From a virus (Duplodnaviria; Heunggongvirae; Uroviricota; Caudoviricetes), in IMG/VR virus record IMGVR_UViG_2522572023_000009: a stretch of DNA of 37,763 nucleotides, one strand, 5' to 3'. Below are positions 6,040 to 27,367 of this stretch, piece after piece. A model generated the notes under the pieces. The model had not been told where the DNA came from, did not search any database, and saw nothing but the letters and a program-made list of their open reading frames with translations. How positions within the stretch are numbered: the first letter of the stretch is position 1; each line of letters opens with the position of its first letter. Position numbers and translations under genes: made by a program.

Positions 6040-6459
6040 TCGTGTTTCCGCTTCGCCGGAGCGCCTTTTCGCGCCATGTGATGAGTTCGGTCAGGCTCAT
6101 GGGATACAGTTCTGATGGCGGCCAGTGAAATATCACTGCCACATCCGCCATCAGGTCATCGACCGACAGATTTTTCGGAAACGTCACTGCACCGAGTTCG
6201 GAGACAAAAAACCGACCACCTTACCGGCCAGCGCCACAAGGTCAGGCAGTTCCAGCGCGGCGACTTCCTGCTCGGTCAGCATCGGTGCCGTCATGCGCGG
6301 CAGCACCTTAATCAGTGCATCGACTTCGGAGTTTGCAACCGCAGCCAGACTGACACCGCGCAGCGTCCCGGCATTGGGTTTCATCAGCGTGACCTGTTCG
6401 ATAACCTGCTCACCACGTTTGACCGGATTTTCCAGGGTAATGACATTTTCTTTGTTCAT
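6032..6459 (-). CDS. E+E': gpE+E', -1 programmed-frameshift product, 142 aa
   Basis: A TTTTTTG slippery heptamer lies on the minus strand (plus 6205–6211) six codons before the E stop. The -1 frame is open for 57 further codons (VSELGAVTFPKNL...RRSGNTNE) and stops at 6032–6034, overlapping the T start. The 142-aa total matches P2 E+E'. Confidence 0.75.
6184..6459 (-). CDS. E: gpE tail assembly chaperone, 91 aa (zero-frame product)
   Basis: Length and synteny match P2 gpE; the protein ends ...KVVGFLSPNSVQ. Confidence 0.85.
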   Translation of the reverse strand: MNKENVITLENPVKRGEQVIEQVTLMKPNAGTLRGVSLAAVANSEVDALIKVLPRMTAPMLTEQEVAALELPDLVALAGKVVGFLSPNSVQ

Positions 6460-7046: not shown

Positions 7047-8237
7047 TTAATTGCTGTTAACCGAGGTGACCAGATTTGCCAGGTATTTATCGGTGATACG
7101 CTGGCGCAGGGTCAGGTTTTCGAGAGGAGGCACCGGGGTATAGTCGTAGTCGATATACAGTTTTCCGGCCTTGAGGGTTTCCGCATCGTTGGATTCTTCG
7201 CTGAACCAGCAGGTCGCATCCACGATATAGCCGTTTGTTTTCAGCTCACGGAATTTGGCATTGATGCCGTCAACGATGTCGCGAATCAGCGTTGCGGTGA
7301 TGGGCTTGTCCACCGCCCACATGTGCGCCTCAGCCATCGTATCGGCCAGCACCTGCGCGGTGCGGGTGTAGTTTTCAAAGAGGAAAAGCGGGTCATCAGA
7401 GCAGGTACGGTTACCCCAGAATCGGAAACCGTCACGGCGAATCAGCGTAGTGACGCCTGACTCGTTAAGCAGGTCAGCATCGGTGCCGGACTCCTGCAAA
7501 TCCCAGAATACAGATGCGCTGATGCCGGTAACACCGTTCACCCCGACATTGGACAGCGTTTTATGCCAGCCCTGCTCCTGGTCGATTCTGGCACGCAGAC
7601 CCAGCGCACGGGCGGTGGCATACGCGGTGGCGGTGGTGCTGGTGACCGTATCCCATGCGAGGAAATCCGGCCAGATGACCATCAGCTCACGCTGGCTGAA
7701 ATTCTGGCGGTAGGCTTTCACCTCGGAAATGGTTTTACAGCCCCATGCGCTGATATATCCGAAAGCGCGCAGCTTCTGACAGACTGATGCCAGTGCAACA
7801 GCCACCTCTTTGGTATCCAGTCCCGGCACGCCGAGAATACGCGGTTTAACACCGGTTACCGACTCCGCCGCCAGCAGGGCTTTCAGTCCGGTGTACTGAC
7901 CGTTTTCGTCGGTGGTGCCGATGATATTGGAAACGGTCTGCGCGAGTTTCGTTTCCTCGTCGTCGCCGGTGCCGTCTTCCACACGCACAACAACGGTGAC
8001 CGGTTTTGACTGGTCAGCGATGGCCTGCAACGATGCCGCCAGCGTGCCTTTTTTACCGGCCTTTGCAATTGCGCTCTGCACATTGGTAATCAGCACCGGT
8101 TTATTGAGGGGGAAGGTTTCCGCATCCGCATCGCTGGCCGTGCAGACCATACCGACAATGGCAGTGGATACTGTGGAAATGACGCGGGTGCCGTCGTTAA
8201 TCTCCAGCACCTGCACGCCGTGATGAAAGTCACTCAT
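7047..8237 (-). CDS. FI: gpFI tail sheath protein, 396 aa
   Basis: Length and synteny match P2 FI. Confidence 0.88.
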   Translation of the reverse strand: MSDFHHGVQVLEINDGTRVISTVSTAIVGMVCTASDADAETFPLNKPVLITNVQSAIAKAGKKGTLAASLQAIADQSKPVTVVVRVEDGTGDDEETKLAQTVSNIIGTTDENGQYTGLKALLAAESVTGVKPRILGVPGLDTKEVAVALASVCQKLRAFGYISAWGCKTISEVKAYRQNFSQRELMVIWPDFLAWDTVTSTTATAYATARALGLRARIDQEQGWHKTLSNVGVNGVTGISASVFWDLQESGTDADLLNESGVTTLIRRDGFRFWGNRTCSDDPLFLFENYTRTAQVLADTMAEAHMWAVDKPITATLIRDIVDGINAKFRELKTNGYIVDATCWFSEESNDAETLKAGKLYIDYDYTPVPPLENLTLRQRITDKYLANLVTSVNSN

Positions 8238-8686
8238 CCGTTTAACTCCGTGGTTAATGGGTGCAACTATTTTCTGTTGTGCAGAGCATGAGACGCTATT
8301 TGACCTGGCTGGTCAGTGGATGAAACAACAGATAAAGAAAAGGTGGGCAATCAGTCGACCTGTCGTCATTTGCATTCACTAGAATTCAACATACATCCTA
8401 CATAGTCAAAACACTATCAAATCTGATTGCCTGCTGTGAGCCAAAAGCAAACCTCGCCAGTGAAAGGTAGAGGTAACTTAAAAGACACATAAACTGAAGT
8501 TTATCTATAGAGCTCCACCTCAGGGGGCTTTATCTGGCAGTTGGAAAATCAGAGCTTGCGCAATGAAAATTTTGATATAAAATCAACACGTTAAACACTT
8601 TCAAACAATTAGTAATTTTCTATATTCAGCAACAAACACGAATAATACATTGACTTCTCTAAATAAACCCCAAAAGGAACATATGA

Positions 8687-8899
8687 ATGCTTGAATGGTT
8701 AAATAACTATATAGGTACTGATTGGGCCACATATCTTGGAGTGTTTCTGGCGATTTTGTCATTAATTTGGGGAGGAAGCAAAGCTCTTAAAAAAAAATCA
8801 ATCAACCAAAAAGCAAAAACCAACGGAGGCATAGTTATTCAGGTTGGTGGTAATTTCCAAGGAGAAAATAACAATGAATCAAAAAGCTCAAGCAAATGA
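8687..8899 (+). CDS. Cargo ORF1: small protein (70 aa) with one N-terminal transmembrane helix and a Lys/Asn/Ser-rich tail
   Basis: ATG at 8687 follows an AAGGA ribosome-binding site with ~9 nt spacing. The protein has a hydrophobic helix (WATYLGVFLAILSLIWGG). The gene is AT-rich, lies on the strand opposite the late operon between FI and G, and contains an A9 homopolymer (about 8789–8797). Confidence 0.5.
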   Translation: MLEWLNNYIGTDWATYLGVFLAILSLIWGGSKALKKKSINQKAKTNGGIVIQVGGNFQGENNNESKSSSK

Positions 8900-9686
8900 G
8901 AACTCAACTATAATACAGGTTGCGGGAAGTTTAAATCAAGGAATCAGCTTTGCCGACTGCGAAAGATTATTCAATTTATTGCTAAAAGAGAACTTCCCAA
9001 AACTCGAAGCCATTGCAGCCTCAACAGCAAAGAGAAATGTTGACACCTTAGTCAAAGCGACATTCGAAAAAATTGATTCAAAGATTAATCAAATCAACGT
9101 GGAAAAACTTGCTCAGCCTGATGTACAAAGTACTTTTAATAGCGCAGTTCAAGGCGTTGCTAGAAAGGGTTCCAAAATAGATATCGATTTACTGGCCGAC
9201 TTACTGGAAGCCAGAATCGAAAAAGATAATACTAACTATATTGATAATTGCATTGAAGCGGCAGTGGAGATGGTGCCCAAACTAACCAGTGATATGCTAG
9301 TAATCTTGCCAGCATTGTATTTTATTCAAGAACTGGAATGGAGTAACCCTACTGAAATTGATAATGTTTATGGCTTAATCTATGACCGTTTTTTATCGCG
9401 AGGTGGTACTATATCACATTCAAAACTCAAGACGATGGCTTCTATTGGGGTGGGCATTTACGTCAATGTTATAGGAAGCAATACCTTTGAAGGCATGAAG
9501 AAAAAATACTCTTGCTTACAAGTAATTAACGCAGAATCAAAATATCCGAGAATGCATCAGGCCTTAAACTTCTATGACCAAAAAGACTTACATCAACTAA
9601 CACTTACCACTCCGGGCCAAGTAATAGCAATCAAAATGCTGGAAGAAATATTTCCCACAATAAATTTGCGCGATTTTTTGCAGTAA
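8844..9686 (+). CDS. Cargo ORF2: hypothetical soluble protein, probably 270 aa from the ATG at 8874
   Basis: The track start at 8844 is a TTG; an ATG at 8874 is preceded by AAGGAG at 8859–8864. The gene overlaps ORF1 by 26 nt. The protein is predicted largely helical and has no motif I recognise; the gene is AT-rich. Confidence 0.6.
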   Translation: MVVISKEKITMNQKAQANENSTIIQVAGSLNQGISFADCERLFNLLLKENFPKLEAIAASTAKRNVDTLVKATFEKIDSKINQINVEKLAQPDVQSTFNSAVQGVARKGSKIDIDLLADLLEARIEKDNTNYIDNCIEAAVEMVPKLTSDMLVILPALYFIQELEWSNPTEIDNVYGLIYDRFLSRGGTISHSKLKTMASIGVGIYVNVIGSNTFEGMKKKYSCLQVINAESKYPRMHQALNFYDQKDLHQLTLTTPGQVIAIKMLEEIFPTINLRDFLQ

Positions 9687-9751
9687 ATTTAGTATTAGCC
9701 AGAGTTCAAACTGATTGATATATTTTAGAGCTCGCTCATCCACTCTTATAA

Positions 9752-9775
9752 ACTAGGGTTACTGTAGTAACCCTA
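9752..9775 (+). terminator. Perfect 10-bp-stem hairpin downstream of the cargo ORFs (putative terminator)
   Basis: CTAGGGTTAC-TGTA-GTAACCCTAG; the following sequence is T-rich but has no clean U-run. Confidence 0.3.
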
Positions 9776-10027
9776 GCTGGTTCATTCTGTTAAAAAAATA
9801 ACTCCATCGTCTTTTAATATCATAGGACGTGTTCGATATCCATTTCTAAAACTAATCCGTCACTCGAACACATTAAGGTACTAAAACTAAGAATGATGGT
9901 TCTAACGTAACCCACGCACCTAAACATCTCTAAAAGAGAATGGTCCACATCCGGCACAGAGCGAACAGCTGGATTAGGTTTGACTCTGTGCCATAGATAT
10001 GTAATCTCACACTAGAGCTTATACAAC

Positions 10028-10555
10028 TTATTGCGGCATTTCCGGCCATTCAGGATTTGCAGGATCCACACGACTGACCAGAACACTGTAGCGTTCCCAT
10101 GCTTCCAGTCGGCTGCGTTCCTCCTCTGTTGCCATATTTAGCCTGACAGCGCGCTCCAGCAGCAAAATCACGGATTCAGCTTCGGAAAGTAAAGTTGCCT
10201 TTTGTGATTCTGCCAGTTGATGCTGTTCGTCTGCCGTATAAATCCGCTTAATCACGGCACCATCCTTAAACATCCATTTACCTGAGTCATCAGCACGTCG
10301 GTTGGCGGTAATATCAGGAACCTCGACAACGCTAAAACCTTCAGGGTTAAGCGTTGAAGCATCTCTGGTGATGCCGACAATTATATTATTCTCGTCGTAA
10401 ACAATCTTTATCGTGTCTTCCTGAAAATTACTTACTTCCTCATACCAGTTTTTTCCGTCTTCAGACCATAACCAGATAACATCAAAATTTTTTGTCAGTT
10501 GATATTGAGCAACAGTTTTGGGATTACCCGCAGTAATATTTTTTAAATGCTGCAT
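10028..10555 (-). CDS. G: gpG-like tail fibre assembly chaperone, 175 aa
   Basis: Length and position (downstream of H) match P2 gpG. GC content is lower than in the neighbouring structural genes, suggesting a swapped host-range module. Confidence 0.8.
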
Positions 10556-10558
10556 AAA

Positions 10559-12487
10559 TTACACCTGTGCGACGTTATACCATGTGCCATTGATGTATTT
10601 TTGTATTGGTCTGAATACTGCGGGGTCATCACCATCGACTTCACCGACAATACCAAGCCCTGTAATTACATGGCCTGATTTTTCATACATCACACCTTTT
10701 TGCATAGTCTGAACAACACGTGTGCCCAGGCGAATATCTCGTACATAGCGAGAATCCGATTCAGCTTTGGTATATGCACCAACATCTCCCGCAGAGGGTT
10801 TGCGGGTTGTGGTGTAAAACTCTGACCAGTCAGCCTCAAATCCATAACCATCACGTGCTGAACGATAAAAAATACCGCCGTTCTTATAATTCACACGGAA
10901 CTGTACGGCAGGGCAACTCCCCGCATTCATATTGAAGTGGAGGATTAATGTCGATGCACCGCTGATATCTGCATCATAAACACCGCTATTCCAGTTCCAG
11001 CCAACAGCTTTATCATTTGCAACCCTGCTTCCTGTTTGCCCTAAAGCAAATGCAGGCTGCTGGTTTTTCGTGTTGTAGTCTCGTCGCCAGCCGGGGGCAT
11101 AAGCATCACCATGATTAATATAAGTGAATTGAGCGTTAGTGGTGCCGCCTCCGGTAGAAGTGCTTGGTGTTGTTACACGGATGGTCATGGCACCTTTATT
11201 ACCCATAACCTCAATAACGCAACCTGCAAGATGAATAGTTCCACAGCCAGTATCGGTAATAATTTTATTATTGCCGTATGACCATGAACATTTGCACATC
11301 CAGTACGGATGATTAAATGCACCACGGGAATCCAGCCATTCAATAAACTGAGCGGTTGTCCAGTTTCCGGCTTCAGTGCTCAAAGCGCCGCTATAAGCAC
11401 GACAGGCACCGATATTTTTCGTGAAGGTATCCTTTCCCGGAATATCCGCACCGTTCTGATCTTTCTGAAGACGTTTTTCAGCATTGTCATAGGCAGACTT
11501 CACTGCTTTTGGTGTTGCGGCCAGCGTTTCAGAATCGCTGTTGATGGCACTATTGAGCTGAACAAGACCTTTCCGCGCCGTGGTGGCGTCCTGTGCAGTG
11601 TATTTCCCGTTAGCAAGGTCATACGCTGTCTTAACCGCCTTTGGCGTTGCCGCAAGCGTTTCAGAATCGCTGTTGGTGGCGCTACTGAGCTGGACAAGAC
11701 CTTTTCGCGCTGTGGTGGCGTCCTGTGCAGTGTATTTCCCGTTAGCAAGGTCATATGCTGCCTTTACCGCTTTTGGTGTTGCGGCGAGCGTTTCAGACGT
11801 GCTGTTGGTGGCGCTACTGAGCTGGACAAGGCCTTTTCGCGCTGTGGTGGCATCCTGCGCAGTGTATTTCCCGTTAGCAAGGTCATAGGCGGCCTTTACC
11901 GCTTTCGGCGTTGCGGCCAGTGTTTCAGACGTGCTGTTGGTCGCGCTGCTTAACTGAGTAAAACCTTTTGCGGTCAGCGAGGCGTCCGGGTGACGTCGTG
12001 ACTGTTCGTGCTCTGCAATTTTGTCATCAACATAATCCTGCGTTGCCATCACCGTTGTGGTGTCAATGGTCAGCGCCACTGAGGCCACACTGCTGACGAT
12101 GATGACCATACGGCAGGTCTGCGAACGTCCTGAGCCTTCGGCAAGAGCTGGCTTATAACTTTCGGCCATGTTCGCCACGGCAATTAACGTTCCCGCATCA
12201 TCGTACAGGCCAAGCTCACGCATCCAGAAACCGCCCACCTCCGGCGGAATAACCAGCTCTGCGATAATATAATTACTGTTTCGTTTGTCCTGGCTGATTT
12301 TGTTCAGCGCATGTCGCCAGACTTCATGGATAAGCCCGGTCTGTCCGGCATCCGGGACAGGCAATTTACCACCGCCATCCCCGACGGCCATCGTGGTAAT
12401 GTTGACCTTCCGCCCTCCCGGCGCGGTTGCCGCTGCCAGCTTTGCTGCACCGGCAGTGGTGATAACGGTTTTGAATTTTGTGCTCAT
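10559..12487 (-). CDS. H: gpH tail fibre protein, 642 aa, with internal tandem repeats and a divergent C-terminal domain
   Basis: The N-terminus is P2 H-like. Four tandem 44-aa repeats (KG[FL]xQLSSATNS[TD]SETLAATPKAVKAAYDLANGKYTAQDATTAR) are of the phage tail-fibre repeat type. Confidence 0.88.
   Translation of the reverse strand: MSTKFKTVITTAGAAKLAAATAPGGRKVNITTMAVGDGGGKLPVPDAGQTGLIHEVWRHALNKISQDKRNSNYIIAELVIPPEVGGFWMRELGLYDDAGTLIAVANMAESYKPALAEGSGRSQTCRMVIIVSSVASVALTIDTTTVMATQDYVDDKIAEHEQSRRHPDASLTAKGFTQLSSATNSTSETLAATPKAVKAAYDLANGKYTAQDATTARKGLVQLSSATNSTSETLAATPKAVKAAYDLANGKYTAQDATTARKGLVQLSSATNSDSETLAATPKAVKTAYDLANGKYTAQDATTARKGLVQLNSAINSDSETLAATPKAVKSAYDNAEKRLQKDQNGADIPGKDTFTKNIGACRAYSGALSTEAGNWTTAQFIEWLDSRGAFNHPYWMCKCSWSYGNNKIITDTGCGTIHLAGCVIEVMGNKGAMTIRVTTPSTSTGGGTTNAQFTYINHGDAYAPGWRRDYNTKNQQPAFALGQTGSRVANDKAVGWNWNSGVYDADISGASTLILHFNMNAGSCPAVQFRVNYKNGGIFYRSARDGYGFEADWSEFYTTTRKPSAGDVGAYTKAESDSRYVRDIRLGTRVVQTMQKGVMYEKSGHVITGLGIVGEVDGDDPAVFRPIQKYINGTWYNVAQV
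11468..11968 (-). repeat. About 3.8 tandem copies of a 132-bp coding repeat inside H
   Basis: Near-identical 132-bp units are visible in the DNA and in the H translation (residues ~174–340). Confidence 0.85.
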
Positions 12488-19319: not shown

Positions 19320-20063
19320 TTAACTGGCTTTCTTTTTCGGGCGTCCACGTTTTGCCGGTGTCGCACTCCGGGTCTTACGCGGGGCGCGGGTGGCCGCTTT
19401 TGGCTGTGGCTCCGGCTTCGGTTTCAGTTCCCGCTCCAGTCGTTCAATCTCTTTTTTGACGCCTGCCTGACAGTCGAGCTGTGTCGCACGTTGCAGGTGC
19501 GCCAGCGCACCTGCGGCATCACCAGCGTCACGCAGAAACAGACCGGTGATTTTGTGCAGCTTTGCGCGCACTTCATCAGGCATGTCAGCCGTGGCGGTAA
19601 GTTCAAGGGTGTCCGTCAGCAGGCGGGGATCCACAGACTCACCAGCAGCGTGGGCGCGCATGGCCGCGAGCGCCACCTCCTCGGTGAACATGTACGGCGG
19701 GGTGCGGCGGTGTTTACCCGGCATGGTCAGACCGTACTTCATGGCATAACGGGCAATCTCCAGCGCACCGGCAATATCGCCGGTATCCAGACGCCACAGC
19801 ATGACTGTCATCAGAATGTCATCCTGTGCGCCTTTGCCCTGCTCCAGCACGCCGTTCACCCACGGCAACCAGAACGGCAGCAGTTCGCGTTTTTTTGCGG
19901 CCTTCAGCTCTTTTGAATAAATCGCTTTCAGTGTGCGCTGGTCTGCGGCCAGCTTGACCAGCATCTGCTCATAGACAGTTGCATGTCGCAGCGGGGCGGC
20001 TTCCCGCTGCGCGGTCATCGCTGCCGAGACCCGCATCATGTGGCGCTGTGCGGGACTCGTCAT
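19320..20063 (-). CDS. M: gpM terminase small (endonuclease) subunit, 247 aa
   Basis: Length and synteny match P2 gpM. Confidence 0.85.
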   Translation of the reverse strand: MTSPAQRHMMRVSAAMTAQREAAPLRHATVYEQMLVKLAADQRTLKAIYSKELKAAKKRELLPFWLPWVNGVLEQGKGAQDDILMTVMLWRLDTGDIAGALEIARYAMKYGLTMPGKHRRTPPYMFTEEVALAAMRAHAAGESVDPRLLTDTLELTATADMPDEVRAKLHKITGLFLRDAGDAAGALAHLQRATQLDCQAGVKKEIERLERELKPKPEPQPKAATRAPRKTRSATPAKRGRPKKKAS

Positions 20064-22226: not shown

Positions 22227-23999
22227 ATGACCATCACCACAGACACCACTCTTTTACACGACCCGCGTCGTCAGGCGGCGCTGCTGTACTGGCAGGGATT
22301 TTCCGTGCCGCAGATTGCCGCCATGTTGCAGATGAAACGCCCGACGGTGCAGAGCTGGAAACAGCGCGACGGCTGGGATAGCGTTGCCCCCATCAGCCGT
22401 GTCGAAATGAGTCTGGAAGCGCGGCTGACCCAGCTCATCATCAAACCGCAGAAAACCGGCGGTGACTTCAAGGAAATTGACCTGCTCGGACGCCAGATTG
22501 AACGACTGGCACGGGTCAACCGTTACAGTCAGACCGGCAACGAGGCAGACCTTAATCCGAACGTCGCTAACCGCAACAAAGGCGGGCGTCGCAAACCGAA
22601 AAAGAATTTTTTCAGTGACGAGGCCATCGAAAAGCTGGAGCAGATTTTCTTTGAGCAGTCTTTCGAATATCAGTTGCACTGGTATCGCGCCGGGCTTGAG
22701 CACCGCATCCGCGATATCCTGAAATCCCGCCAGATTGGCGCGACATTTTATTTTTCCCGCGAGGCGCTGCTGCGCGCCCTGAAAACCGGTCATAACCAGA
22801 TTTTTCTGTCGGCCAGTAAAACGCAGGCGTATGTGTTCCGCGAATACATCATCGCCTTTGCCCGTCTGGTTGACGTTGACCTGACCGGTGACCCGATTGT
22901 CCTGGGCAATAACGGCGCAAAACTGATTTTTCTCGGCACCAACTCCAACACCGCGCAGAGCCATAACGGCGACCTGTACGTCGACGAGATTTTCTGGATC
23001 CCGAATTTTCAGGTACTGCGTAAGGTGGCATCAGGTATGGCCTCACAGAGTCACCTGCGTTCGACCTATTTCTCCACCCCGTCCACGCTGGCGCACGACG
23101 CCTACCCGTTCTGGTCGGGTGAACTGTATAACCGGGGACGCGCCAGCGCCGCCGAACGCGTGGAAATCGACGTCAGTCATAACGCCCTTGCCGGTGGGCT
23201 TCTCTGTGCGGACGGCCAGTGGCGACAGATTGTCACCATTGAGGACGCCCTGAAAGGTGGCTGCACGCTGTTCGACATTGAGCAGCTCAAACGCGAAAAC
23301 AGCGCCGACGATTTTAAAAACCTGTTCATGTGTGAATTTGTTGACGACAAGGCGTCGGTGTTCCCGTTCGAGGAGCTGCAACGCTGCATGGTCGACACGC
23401 TGGAAGAATGGGAAGACTATGCACCCTTTGCCGCCAATCCGTTCGGCTCCCGCCCGGTATGGATTGGTTACGACCCGTCACACCGTGGCGACAGTGCCGG
23501 ATGCGTGGTGCTGGCACCGCCGGTGGTGGCCGGTGGCAAATTCAGAATACTTGAGCGTCACCAGTGGAAAGGCATGGACTTTGCCACTCAGGCTGAATCC
23601 ATCCGCAAACTCACCGAAAAATACAACGTCGAATACATCGGTATTGATGCCACCGGCCTCGGTGTCGGCGTGTTCCAGCTCGTGCGCTCGTTCTATCCCG
23701 CCGCGCGCGACATCCGCTACACGCCGGAAATGAAAACCGCAATGGTGCTCAAGGCAAAAGACGTCATCCGCCGTGGCTGTCTGGAATATGACGTCAGCGC
23801 CACCGACATCACCAGCTCGTTTATGGCTATCCGCAAGACCATGACCAGCAGCGGACGCAGCGCCACCTATGAGGCCAGCCGCAGCGAGGAAGCCAGCCAC
23901 GCCGACCTCGCCTGGGCGACCATGCACGCCCTGTTAAATGAGCCACTCACCGCCGGTATCAGCACTCCGCTGACATCCACCATTCTGGAGTTTTACTGA
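22227..23999 (+). CDS. P: gpP terminase large (ATPase) subunit, ~590 aa
   Basis: The track ORF begins at a TTG; the ATG at 22227 (MTITTDTTLLHD) gives 590 aa, as in P2 gpP. It is transcribed divergently from O, as in P2. Confidence 0.9.
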   Translation: MTITTDTTLLHDPRRQAALLYWQGFSVPQIAAMLQMKRPTVQSWKQRDGWDSVAPISRVEMSLEARLTQLIIKPQKTGGDFKEIDLLGRQIERLARVNRYSQTGNEADLNPNVANRNKGGRRKPKKNFFSDEAIEKLEQIFFEQSFEYQLHWYRAGLEHRIRDILKSRQIGATFYFSREALLRALKTGHNQIFLSASKTQAYVFREYIIAFARLVDVDLTGDPIVLGNNGAKLIFLGTNSNTAQSHNGDLYVDEIFWIPNFQVLRKVASGMASQSHLRSTYFSTPSTLAHDAYPFWSGELYNRGRASAAERVEIDVSHNALAGGLLCADGQWRQIVTIEDALKGGCTLFDIEQLKRENSADDFKNLFMCEFVDDKASVFPFEELQRCMVDTLEEWEDYAPFAANPFGSRPVWIGYDPSHRGDSAGCVVLAPPVVAGGKFRILERHQWKGMDFATQAESIRKLTEKYNVEYIGIDATGLGVGVFQLVRSFYPAARDIRYTPEMKTAMVLKAKDVIRRGCLEYDVSATDITSSFMAIRKTMTSSGRSATYEASRSEEASHADLAWATMHALLNEPLTAGISTPLTSTILEFY

Positions 24000-25345: not shown

Positions 25346-27367
25346 TTATAATTTCCTCAACAATTTCCCATTGTTCTTATCAAAGGATATCATTGTATAG
25401 TCATACCCTTCTAATGCCTCTTTTAAGACATTTTCATCTTCTGATGTAGCAAAAATGATCTGCCCTTGTCCTTTTGTTGTTTCTGCAGCATCTTTAAGTA
25501 ACTCGGCAAAACTTACTTTATTTGCTTCTTGTTGACGAGGCTCATCAAACACAATCAATCCAGGGTGATTTGTTTGAAATTTAGAACCAACAACAAATAA
25601 ACTTATTAAATAACCCCAAATGATTCTTATTCCATCACTAGCTGATGTGTCAAAACCTATATCATATCCTTCCCTAGTAGGTAAGTAATTATCTTCTGAT
25701 ATTGACACAAGTTTAGAATCAAAACTTGTAAAATTATATTTTTCTAATCGTGCAACGACTTCTTTATTAAGAAATTTTAACTTATCGGCATCATTACGCG
25801 ACAAGAAATTATCTGGCAATCCTTTTCTTTTCGCGATAAGCTTTTTATATCTACGGTGTAATGAATCCAACTCCAGTCTAATGTCCAATATACTTTTAAT
25901 GCCATCGTTAATGGCATTAATTTTATTCTCAATGTTTATTTTACGTCTCAGAAACTCCTCCTGAACAACCATTGAGGGATATTTTGACTCCCTTAATGCA
26001 TTAATATCAACTCTAATCTTGGCTATTTCCCCCTCTAAATCACTCCTCTCAACATCTTTAAGCTTTAATTGCTTTTCACTATCCGACAGAACAAACTCAA
26101 ATGCTTTTACTTGCTCTTTAATAAAGTTCAAACTATCTTCATATGTCATCAGATTTTCTTGCGATGAAAAACTTAGCAAATTATCATTATAACTTGCACC
26201 ACAAGTCGGACAAATATTTGACATTAAATCTGTTGACTTATACGCATCCGAAGATGATATTTTCTTTAAATCTTCATACTTCCTTTTATCTTCCAACAGA
26301 TTATACAATCTGTTTTTGGTCGCCTGAATTTGATATTGAATATAACTTCTATGCTCACAAATCTCTTTAATCTTTAATTCCAGAGAGTTAATTTCATCAT
26401 TTTTTTGACCTAATAACTTAACCACTGATAATTGTAAAGTTTGTTCTTCTTGCTCACCAAGAGTGTCAAACTTAATTTCTTGCAACTCTTTTTCCAGTTC
26501 ATTACGAACATCAACAATAGATCTAACGACACTACCATTTTTAATAATCAAATCTATCTTATAATGATCAAATTTTGCCACTGGTTGTTCAGGAATCCCT
26601 GTGACAACTGACGACAATTTAGAAGCAATAACTTCTGCATTGTGTTTAATTAACTTCCAATCATGATAAATAATATCAAGTTCATTTCTTAACGAACTAC
26701 GCAATAAAATATTATCATTAACATCAAGAGACATTAAAAATTCTAGAGCTCTTTTCTTTGGCTCTTTAATTCCAAATTGTGTTGGTACAGTCGCCATAAT
26801 TGACGACCATCCTTTTTTTTGCTCAACATACCATGCAGGGAAAAGTACGGATGGATAAAGAATAGTGTCCTTCCCATTATGGTTTGGAACATTTGGCAAA
26901 CTCCAACCTATAAAATCAGCTAACCACTTATAGAAACCACGTTCCCTTTCAGTATCGCCCTCTCTATGTAAAAAATAAGTACCACTCTTACTTTTTACAT
27001 TATTCTTCTCATCTATATAAATAACATTATTATTATCGTGACCGATAATATTCCTTTTCAAAGATGCTTCTATTCCCTTATGATTCTTTATTTTTAGCAA
27101 AACATAAGATGATATTACACTAACTTCAACATTATCTTTTGTCGTTAGTGCTCTAGTCAAAGATGGAGGGAATGGGATTTTTCCAGAACCGACACCTAAT
27201 GCCTTTTCCATCCCAAGTGCATATGCAATCCCATTCATGCAAGTTGATTTACCATGAGAATTCTCAACTCTTAATAAAAACAAGCCATTTGAAAAAGGTA
27301 TACTAACACCATAACGCCCATCCGAAGTATTTGCTACTAACTCCAATGAAATAATTTCCAACGACAT
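25346..27367 (-). CDS. Cargo gene 3: SMC/Rad50-like ABC ATPase with coiled-coil and CxxC hook, 673 aa (candidate LmuB/DdmC-like)
   Basis: An N-terminal P-loop (ENSHGKST), a long Lys/Glu/Leu-rich coiled-coil region with a central CPTC motif, and a C-terminal Walker B/D-loop (LIVFDEPRQQ). There is no nuclease domain after the ATPase C-lobe. The gene is strongly AT-rich. Confidence 0.7.
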   Translation of the reverse strand: MSLEIISLELVANTSDGRYGVSIPFSNGLFLLRVENSHGKSTCMNGIAYALGMEKALGVGSGKIPFPPSLTRALTTKDNVEVSVISSYVLLKIKNHKGIEASLKRNIIGHDNNNVIYIDEKNNVKSKSGTYFLHREGDTERERGFYKWLADFIGWSLPNVPNHNGKDTILYPSVLFPAWYVEQKKGWSSIMATVPTQFGIKEPKKRALEFLMSLDVNDNILLRSSLRNELDIIYHDWKLIKHNAEVIASKLSSVVTGIPEQPVAKFDHYKIDLIIKNGSVVRSIVDVRNELEKELQEIKFDTLGEQEEQTLQLSVVKLLGQKNDEINSLELKIKEICEHRSYIQYQIQATKNRLYNLLEDKRKYEDLKKISSSDAYKSTDLMSNICPTCGASYNDNLLSFSSQENLMTYEDSLNFIKEQVKAFEFVLSDSEKQLKLKDVERSDLEGEIAKIRVDINALRESKYPSMVVQEEFLRRKINIENKINAINDGIKSILDIRLELDSLHRRYKKLIAKRKGLPDNFLSRNDADKLKFLNKEVVARLEKYNFTSFDSKLVSISEDNYLPTREGYDIGFDTSASDGIRIIWGYLISLFVVGSKFQTNHPGLIVFDEPRQQEANKVSFAELLKDAAETTKGQGQIIFATSEDENVLKEALEGYDYTMISFDKNNGKLLRKL

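Follow-up and report, generated by a model that had tools for sequence, protein, structure and literature searches.

Mobile insertion cassettes (MICs) and the Tn3-derived TIMEs have terminal inverted repeats, are flanked by target-site duplications and carry passenger genes, and encode no transposase. Tn552 has 116-bp terminal repeats, 6-7-bp duplications and a transposase of the TnsB/MuA type. In the hotspots of P2 and P4 phages, transposable elements are described as almost absent (PMC13586616). Recent P2/P4 hotspot work leaves open how defence cargo travels between phages and unrelated mobile elements, and the hotspot papers recovered by our literature search describe the locus, not its ends. 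The record for P2-EC67 (GenBank AJ512685) labels a left and a right inverted repeat. Here we propose that the AT-rich spacer adjoining the tail fibre assembly gene G of a P2-like prophage is probably the right-hand end, with the adjoining interior, of a non-autonomous transposon-like element of 1,655 bp (8371-10025).

The window, as we call the whole stretch of 37,763 nucleotides analysed, matches a P2-like prophage found in E. coli O145:H28 RM12761 at 100% identity. The locus between the sheath gene FI and G is the classical Z/fun position, and here it holds a cargo operon of low GC content (Table 1). The spacer (9687-10027, 341 nt) lies between two convergent stop codons, that of the cargo at 9686 on the plus strand and that of G at 10028-10030 on the minus strand. 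Its GC content is 0.35-0.40, versus 0.50-0.59 in the tail genes. An earlier note on this DNA had described two hairpins in an AT-rich spacer, and both are real. The second has the 9-nt arms claimed for it (9953-9961 and 9984-9992, with a 22-nt loop). The first also exists, with its 10-bp stem, although the coordinates given there (9752-9775) are one base off; it lies at 9753-9776.

Table 1. Coordinates of the features identified in and around the spacer (positions in the window).
Feature	Position	Strand	Evidence
Sheath gene FI	7047-8237	-	
Relic of ancestral G-operon terminator (phage 186 t45 homologue; GCCCACCTTTTCTTT)	8335-8362	-	Phage 186 annotation and sequence; P2 sequence
Beta-type terminal inverted repeat, FI-side arm, degenerate	8371-8455	-	nhmmer arm profile, E 2.7e-7
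Cargo operon	8687-9686	+	RefSeq annotation
Gene for 70-aa protein	8687-8899	+	RefSeq annotation
Gene for 270-aa LPO_1073/Vpar_1526-family protein	8874-9686	+	NF045477 at 1e-52
Cargo-linked 3' untranslated tail	9687-~9850	+	BLAST homology and alignment
Invariant CTTATAAA, then hairpin 1	9745-9776		Pairing in four contexts
Lineage-specific filler	~9851-9939		No detectable homologue
Alpha-type terminal inverted repeat, G-side arm	9940-10025	+	nhmmer E 1.7e-10; alignment with P2-like, plasmid and metagenome arms
Hairpin 2 (hairpin A), inside alpha arm	9953-9992		Pairing conserved in alpha arms
Tail fibre assembly gene G	10028-10555	-	Caudo_TAP 2e-33; RefSeq annotation
Fibre gene H	10559-12487	-	

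Within the spacer, three parts of different history were identified. BLAST comparison with seven P2-like records shows that phage homology stops at 8441-8452 and restarts at 9944-9955, which assigns hairpin 2 to the conserved region and hairpin 1 to the inserted one. The suspected recombination junction lies at ~9940, with hairpin 2 on its conserved side. Homology (80-83%) to the three copies of the cargo outside P2 continues past the cargo stop to 9775-9785 by BLAST, and to ~9850 by alignment, with a 27-nt deletion. Neither the spacer nor 9851-9939 had a match in phages or plasmids, and a search of E. coli genomes with 9687-9950 returned three genomes only, all carrying the same prophage. The earlier note missed an 8-nt perfect inverted repeat at 9829-9836 and 9864-9871 (GTGTTCGA and TCGAACAC, with a 27-nt spacer), which we estimate to be at chance level for its length.

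A small RNA had also been suggested for this spacer, and more generally the spacer could encode a small RNA or micro-protein of the cargo system. Promoter-like sites occur on the plus strand at 9696-9724 and on the minus strand at 9848-9819, and three mechanically called ORFs of 39-48 aa fall at least partly in the spacer. We consider this reading highly improbable. Only four promoter-like sites are present versus 6.1 expected from shuffled sequences, a search of 8000-10600 returned no Rfam match at E<=1 and no tRNA or tmRNA, folding of 9800-9945 gives nothing out of the ordinary (z = -1.6 and -0.6), and 9851-9939 is conserved nowhere. The ORFs have no Pfam or NCBIfam match; the earlier statement that the spacer contains no ORF holds for real genes.

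A feature that the earlier note missed is that the block adjoining G is a terminal inverted repeat with a partner on the far side of the cargo. We gathered 120 IMG/VR loci via the 3' end of G, the hairpin not being a selection criterion, and among them the block occurs in 67 variants. The 108 complete IMG/VR hotspots and the window together hold 45 cargo types. Across these, cargo always starts after ...GCGGACGTT on the FI side and always ends before AACGTCCGC... on the G side, and over ~89 nt each flank is an inverted copy of the other. Comparison of the junction across relatives, as the earlier note had proposed, finds fixed cargo boundaries, and conservation within the spacer. In every P2-like phage examined the cargo is bounded by these arms. 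There are two types: alpha arms have a TGGCACAG motif and hairpin A (hairpin 2 of the window), beta arms have a TCGCTCAAAG motif, and each complete unit has one of each. In the window, 2 nt separate the outer terminus of the alpha arm (...TATACA) from the stop codon of G.

Better-preserved copies have termini of the form 5'-TGTATTAGC...GCTAATACA-3' and two TGTCAGAT motifs per arm. The window arms lack TGTCAGAT motifs, so the window copy is probably immobile. Both arms are degenerate, scoring 28 and 38 bits with nhmmer versus 65-81 bits for most full-length plasmid arms. Because of this degeneracy, a direct test for inverted similarity between the two flanks of the window gave a chance-level score (17, versus a shuffle mean of 15.8), and the pairing of the repeats is evident only when P2-EC67 and consensus sequences are brought in. 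The left repeat of AJ512685 (113 nt) corresponds to window positions 9944-10057 and the right repeat (91 nt) to ~8362-8452.

The arms are also present on plasmids. Each has more than 400 plasmid matches in PLSDB, in Klebsiella, Pantoea, Enterobacter, Salmonella, Yersinia, Serratia and Providencia, and several of the plasmid copies examined are near traM, psiA or other leading-region genes. A joined arm-to-arm query gave no match across the junction; every match stops at the inner ends, which means that cargo is always present. Unrelated cargo is found between the same arms on plasmids and metagenome contigs, including type II CBASS (SMODS, ThiF, JAB, HNH-SAVED), an RT-like protein, HNH-type proteins and small uncharacterised proteins.

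The flanks of several of these units point to transposition. In six plasmid units, the flanking 7-mers, compared as direct repeats, match at 7/7 positions in two and at 6/7, 5/7, 3/7 and 2/7 in the others, and the match peaks at n=7 only. For a 3,089-bp unit on a Serratia plasmid, we identified the exact empty site, with a single CCTGATA, on two related Serratia plasmids, NZ_MT039182 and NZ_MT039152. A metagenome scan for the outer terminus recovered 33 complete units of 0.5-6.7 kb; perfect 7-bp duplications flank eight of the ten with placeable termini, and the remaining two match at 6/7 and 5/7. No transposase domain was detected by Pfam in the cargo ORFs of six elements, nor among the other cargo ORFs, which were listed or read by eye. 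The case for mobility rests on the duplications and one empty site, since neither a transposase nor an autonomous copy was found.

Some of the individual units deserve mention. Two metagenome units of 6.7 kb (L209, 4447-11154; L232, 6598-13308) are arm-bounded, have perfect 7-bp duplications and encode a type II CBASS operon and an exonuclease-like gene; that in L232 also has an Mrr-like gene. A 614-bp arm-bounded unit recurs in L146 (5549-6162) and at least 14 other metagenome loci, and has one 124-aa ORF that, judged by eye, may encode a lipoprotein. On the K. pneumoniae plasmid pINF078-VP (L139, 7699-7783), fhuE is followed by an alpha arm whose outer end overlaps with a gene annotated as an IS66 transposase; this may reflect an IS66 insertion.

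Phage 186 displays the unoccupied arrangement of the P2 site. There, the stop codon of the G homologue, the terminator t45, an activator site, the promoter pJ and the sheath gene lie within 128 bp, and there are no arms. The P2 reference retains a t45-like U-tract (TTGCCCGCCTTTTCTTT) immediately beyond the beta arm and ahead of the PF activator site; the fold at the corresponding relic of the window is weak. The position of this t45-like relic outside the beta arm means that the unit has the G stop codon on one side and the old terminator on the other. The flanking 7-mers match at 4/7 positions in the window and 5/7 in the P2 consensus, so insertion in P2 is inferred from phage 186 and relatives. 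No near-identical empty site was found for P2.

The same region invites a different reading, namely that the block after G and hairpin 2 are phage backbone, serving as terminator or 3' stabiliser of the V-W-J-I-H-G late operon, and that the cargo boundary is the mere edge of phage homology. The block does begin 2 nt past the G stop codon, is near-invariant in the 67 P2-like variants, and has a stable fold on the G-sense strand (-26.7 kcal/mol, z = -2.65). However, the same sequence with hairpin A ends plasmid cargo units that have no G gene, and target duplications surround those units. Hairpin A is followed by no U-tract. The phage 186 terminator is different and compact, its homologue in P2 lies beyond the other arm, and the V terminator is 365 nt further on in the P2 record. 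We regard a backbone origin of the block as unlikely, and favour its identity as the end of a transposon-like unit.

Considered alone, hairpin 2 is not rare, as shuffled sequences contain ~4.5 such repeats per window. As hairpin A of the alpha arms, its pairing is retained in 84% of cells across 17 arms (21-51% in slid controls) and in 85% across 32 arms (17-46%). Both sides have changed in three pairs; a Salmonella plasmid arm has GGCACAGACC/GGTCTGTGCC versus GGCACAGAG/CTCTGTGCC in P2. Covariation is modest, with 13/500 shuffles equalling the score for the 17 arms. The alpha arm thus has hairpin 2 as a conserved structural feature. The hairpin may aid recognition of the end; another possible role is that of a barrier to, or 3' stabiliser of, transcripts of the G operon. 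A further candidate, hairpin B (GTCCGCTC/GAGCGGAC) at the inner arm edge, was rejected: it shows no covariation, and many alpha arms of plasmids, like that of the window, have it in broken form.

The inner edges of the arms bear on yet another reading, in which the arms are cassette-exchange sites of the integron or pdif type and site-specific recombination occurs at the inner hairpins (AAC-GTCCGC...GCGGAC-GTT). This would fit the base-precise cargo boundaries in phages and plasmids, and the retention of inner motifs in three cargo copies outside P2. Between tandem cassettes on Yersinia and Pantoea plasmids, we identified imperfect palindromes of 60-70 nt that combine an alpha-inner and a beta-inner hairpin, and the title of Nilsson et al. 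2004 also points to site-specific recombination. Nonetheless, whole units including the outer arms insert with 7-bp duplications, and one empty site is available. Only the AAC and GTT triplets are conserved, with variable adjoining bases and no full RYYYAAC / GTTRRRY core sites. No integrase (IntI) or Xer-like site was identified near the examined units, and the failings of hairpin B count against it too. We therefore find cassette exchange quite unlikely as the main explanation, and retain the transposon-like element. Even so, simple transposition accounts neither for the sharpness of the inner cargo boundary nor for the short alpha-beta junctions that separate tandem cassettes, and the palindromes suggest a second level of modularity.

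On one Pantoea plasmid (L137), such junctions at 6231-6292, 22521-22588, 26265-26330 and 38353-38420 have the form AAC-GTCCGCTTCTGGCACAAAGCGGAC-(10-15 nt)-GTCCGCTATGAGCGAGGAGCGGAC-GTT. They are many and intergenic, resemble REP/BIME or attC elements in appearance, and are built from the inner parts of both arm types.

For the cargo pair of the window, no Pfam or PADLOC match was found; together, the 70-aa and LPO_1073-family proteins may constitute a defence or exclusion module. In three other P2 hotspots (L060, L092 and L127), a homologue of the 70-aa protein is present (39-43% identity) but none of the LPO_1073-family protein. The module was also found in three non-P2 places at 80-84% identity: adjoining an integrase in E. 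coli TUM14664, adjoining a split P4-type integrase in C. freundii, and between glyS and cueP in S. arizonae. These three copies retain only the inner 25-35 nt of the arms. In C. freundii (L131, 5536-5838), an Acb2/Tad1-like anti-CBASS gene is located a few hundred bases from the same cargo cassette.

Hairpin 1 is a perfect 24-nt palindrome with 11-nt arms (9753-9763 and 9766-9776) set 2 nt apart, and is the sole perfect hairpin with 11-bp arms in the 37.7-kb window (shuffle mean 0.19). As RNA, it would form a 10-bp stem with five G-C pairs and a 4-nt loop, with an energy of -15.2 kcal/mol on the plus strand and -17.3 on the minus strand (z = -2.6 and -3.5, respectively). Along with the invariant CTTATAAA, it is kept in all three non-P2 cargo contexts. 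Over the four sequences, pairing is retained in 85% of cells versus 25-50% in slid controls, and there is one compensatory pair (U-A versus C-G); covariation is weak, as 124/500 shuffles equal the observed score.

The position of hairpin 1, by the stop of the cargo gene convergent with G, is that of the annotated P2 V-operon terminator, and its stem is of the terminator type (5 bp or more including G+C, closed by a loop of 3-8 nt). On neither strand are there at least five U in the eight positions after the stem, where CUGGUUCA occurs on the plus strand and UUUAUAAG on the minus strand, and a terminator scan was silent. The cargo terminator suggested in the earlier note is plausible for hairpin 1, which is conserved and travels with the cargo, but a canonical U-tract is lacking. 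Hairpin 1 is probably a terminator or 3'-end stabiliser. Its most likely role is to end or stabilise transcripts at the meeting point of cargo and late-operon transcription. On the minus strand, the conserved TTTATAAG would suit a weak terminator for late transcripts entering the cargo antisense; protection of the cargo mRNA at its 3' end is another possible role of the hairpin.

In the P2-like phage L117 (8640-8700), a GC-rich hairpin, AGGGCTGC-TGTT-GCAGCCCT, takes the place of the hairpin A loop; it is very similar to hairpin 1 as found in TUM14664. Further perfect hairpins whose stems are 10 bp long were detected in the window at 1601-1624, 19493-19514, 25896-25920 and 31075-31099 (shuffle mean 0.3), and these four may be operon terminators of the prophage.

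Overall, we propose that the element inserted between the stop codon of G and the old terminator of the operon in an ancestor of P2-type phages. Its ends are asymmetric and ~86-89 bp long, with the beta arm by the FI promoter region and the alpha arm by G, and all DNA between the arms is cargo. Mobilisation may be achieved in trans by a transposase, and cargo could be swapped among P2 phages by homologous recombination via the arms or the flanking tail genes. More broadly, we put at about even the chance that the Z/fun hotspot, far from being a recombination-prone gap, is a resident member of a widespread, apparently undescribed family of non-autonomous transposons with ~89-bp asymmetric ends and 7-bp duplications. 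Mobilised in trans, members of such a family would ferry defence and accessory cassettes (CBASS, RT-type, nuclease-type, LPO_1073) among plasmid leading regions, phages and chromosomes. A full-text literature search retrieved no description of such a family, and no paper that reads the arms as transposon ends.

Several other candidates were considered and set aside. For a sigma-54-like TGGCAC motif, the distance to the GC element is wrong, and the GGGG...TAAG signature of Tn3-like ends is absent, both as judged by eye. The ends of IS100 (IS21 family) do not match the arms. The leading-region contexts brought to mind an Frpo/ssi single-strand promoter, but F-type and IncI plasmids are not evident among the matches listed, and the arms flank cargo and do not form a contiguous hairpin.

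The transposon-like ends of the Z/fun cargo, which on other replicons surround CBASS and come with target duplications, offer a concrete, testable vehicle for the spread of defence cargo. The arm profile provides a sequence handle for the discovery of new cargo systems. For the prophage itself, the meeting place of late tail-gene and cargo transcription is now located.

Comparison with known systems reveals both shared and distinct features. The repeats labelled in AJ512685, among the records of Nilsson, Karlsson and Haggard-Ljungquist (2004), are the same sequences as the window arms. That record contains repeat labels only; the target duplications, the empty site, the spread over plasmids and metagenomes and the alpha/beta asymmetry are added by the present analysis. 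The P2 V-operon terminator (AF063097, 15639-15666) abuts the fun(Z) stop in the same place as hairpin 1, but there the hairpin is followed by a long T-run, which hairpin 1 lacks. The Pantoea plasmid palindromes are similar to REP/BIME and attC elements in that they are short, imperfect and intergenic, pair alternate types and have AAC/GTT at the base. They differ in that their sequence is conserved, not the structure alone, and in that full core sites are absent. Like MICs and TIMEs, the arm-bounded units combine terminal inverted repeats, target duplication and passengers with the lack of a transposase, but their ends are long and asymmetric (~89 bp), the duplication is 7 bp, and no parent transposon was identified. 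With Tn552, the units share long terminal repeats containing repeated internal motifs, TG...CA termini and a duplication of ~7 bp, a likeness by description that serves as a lead only; unlike Tn552, they carry no transposase or ATPase genes.
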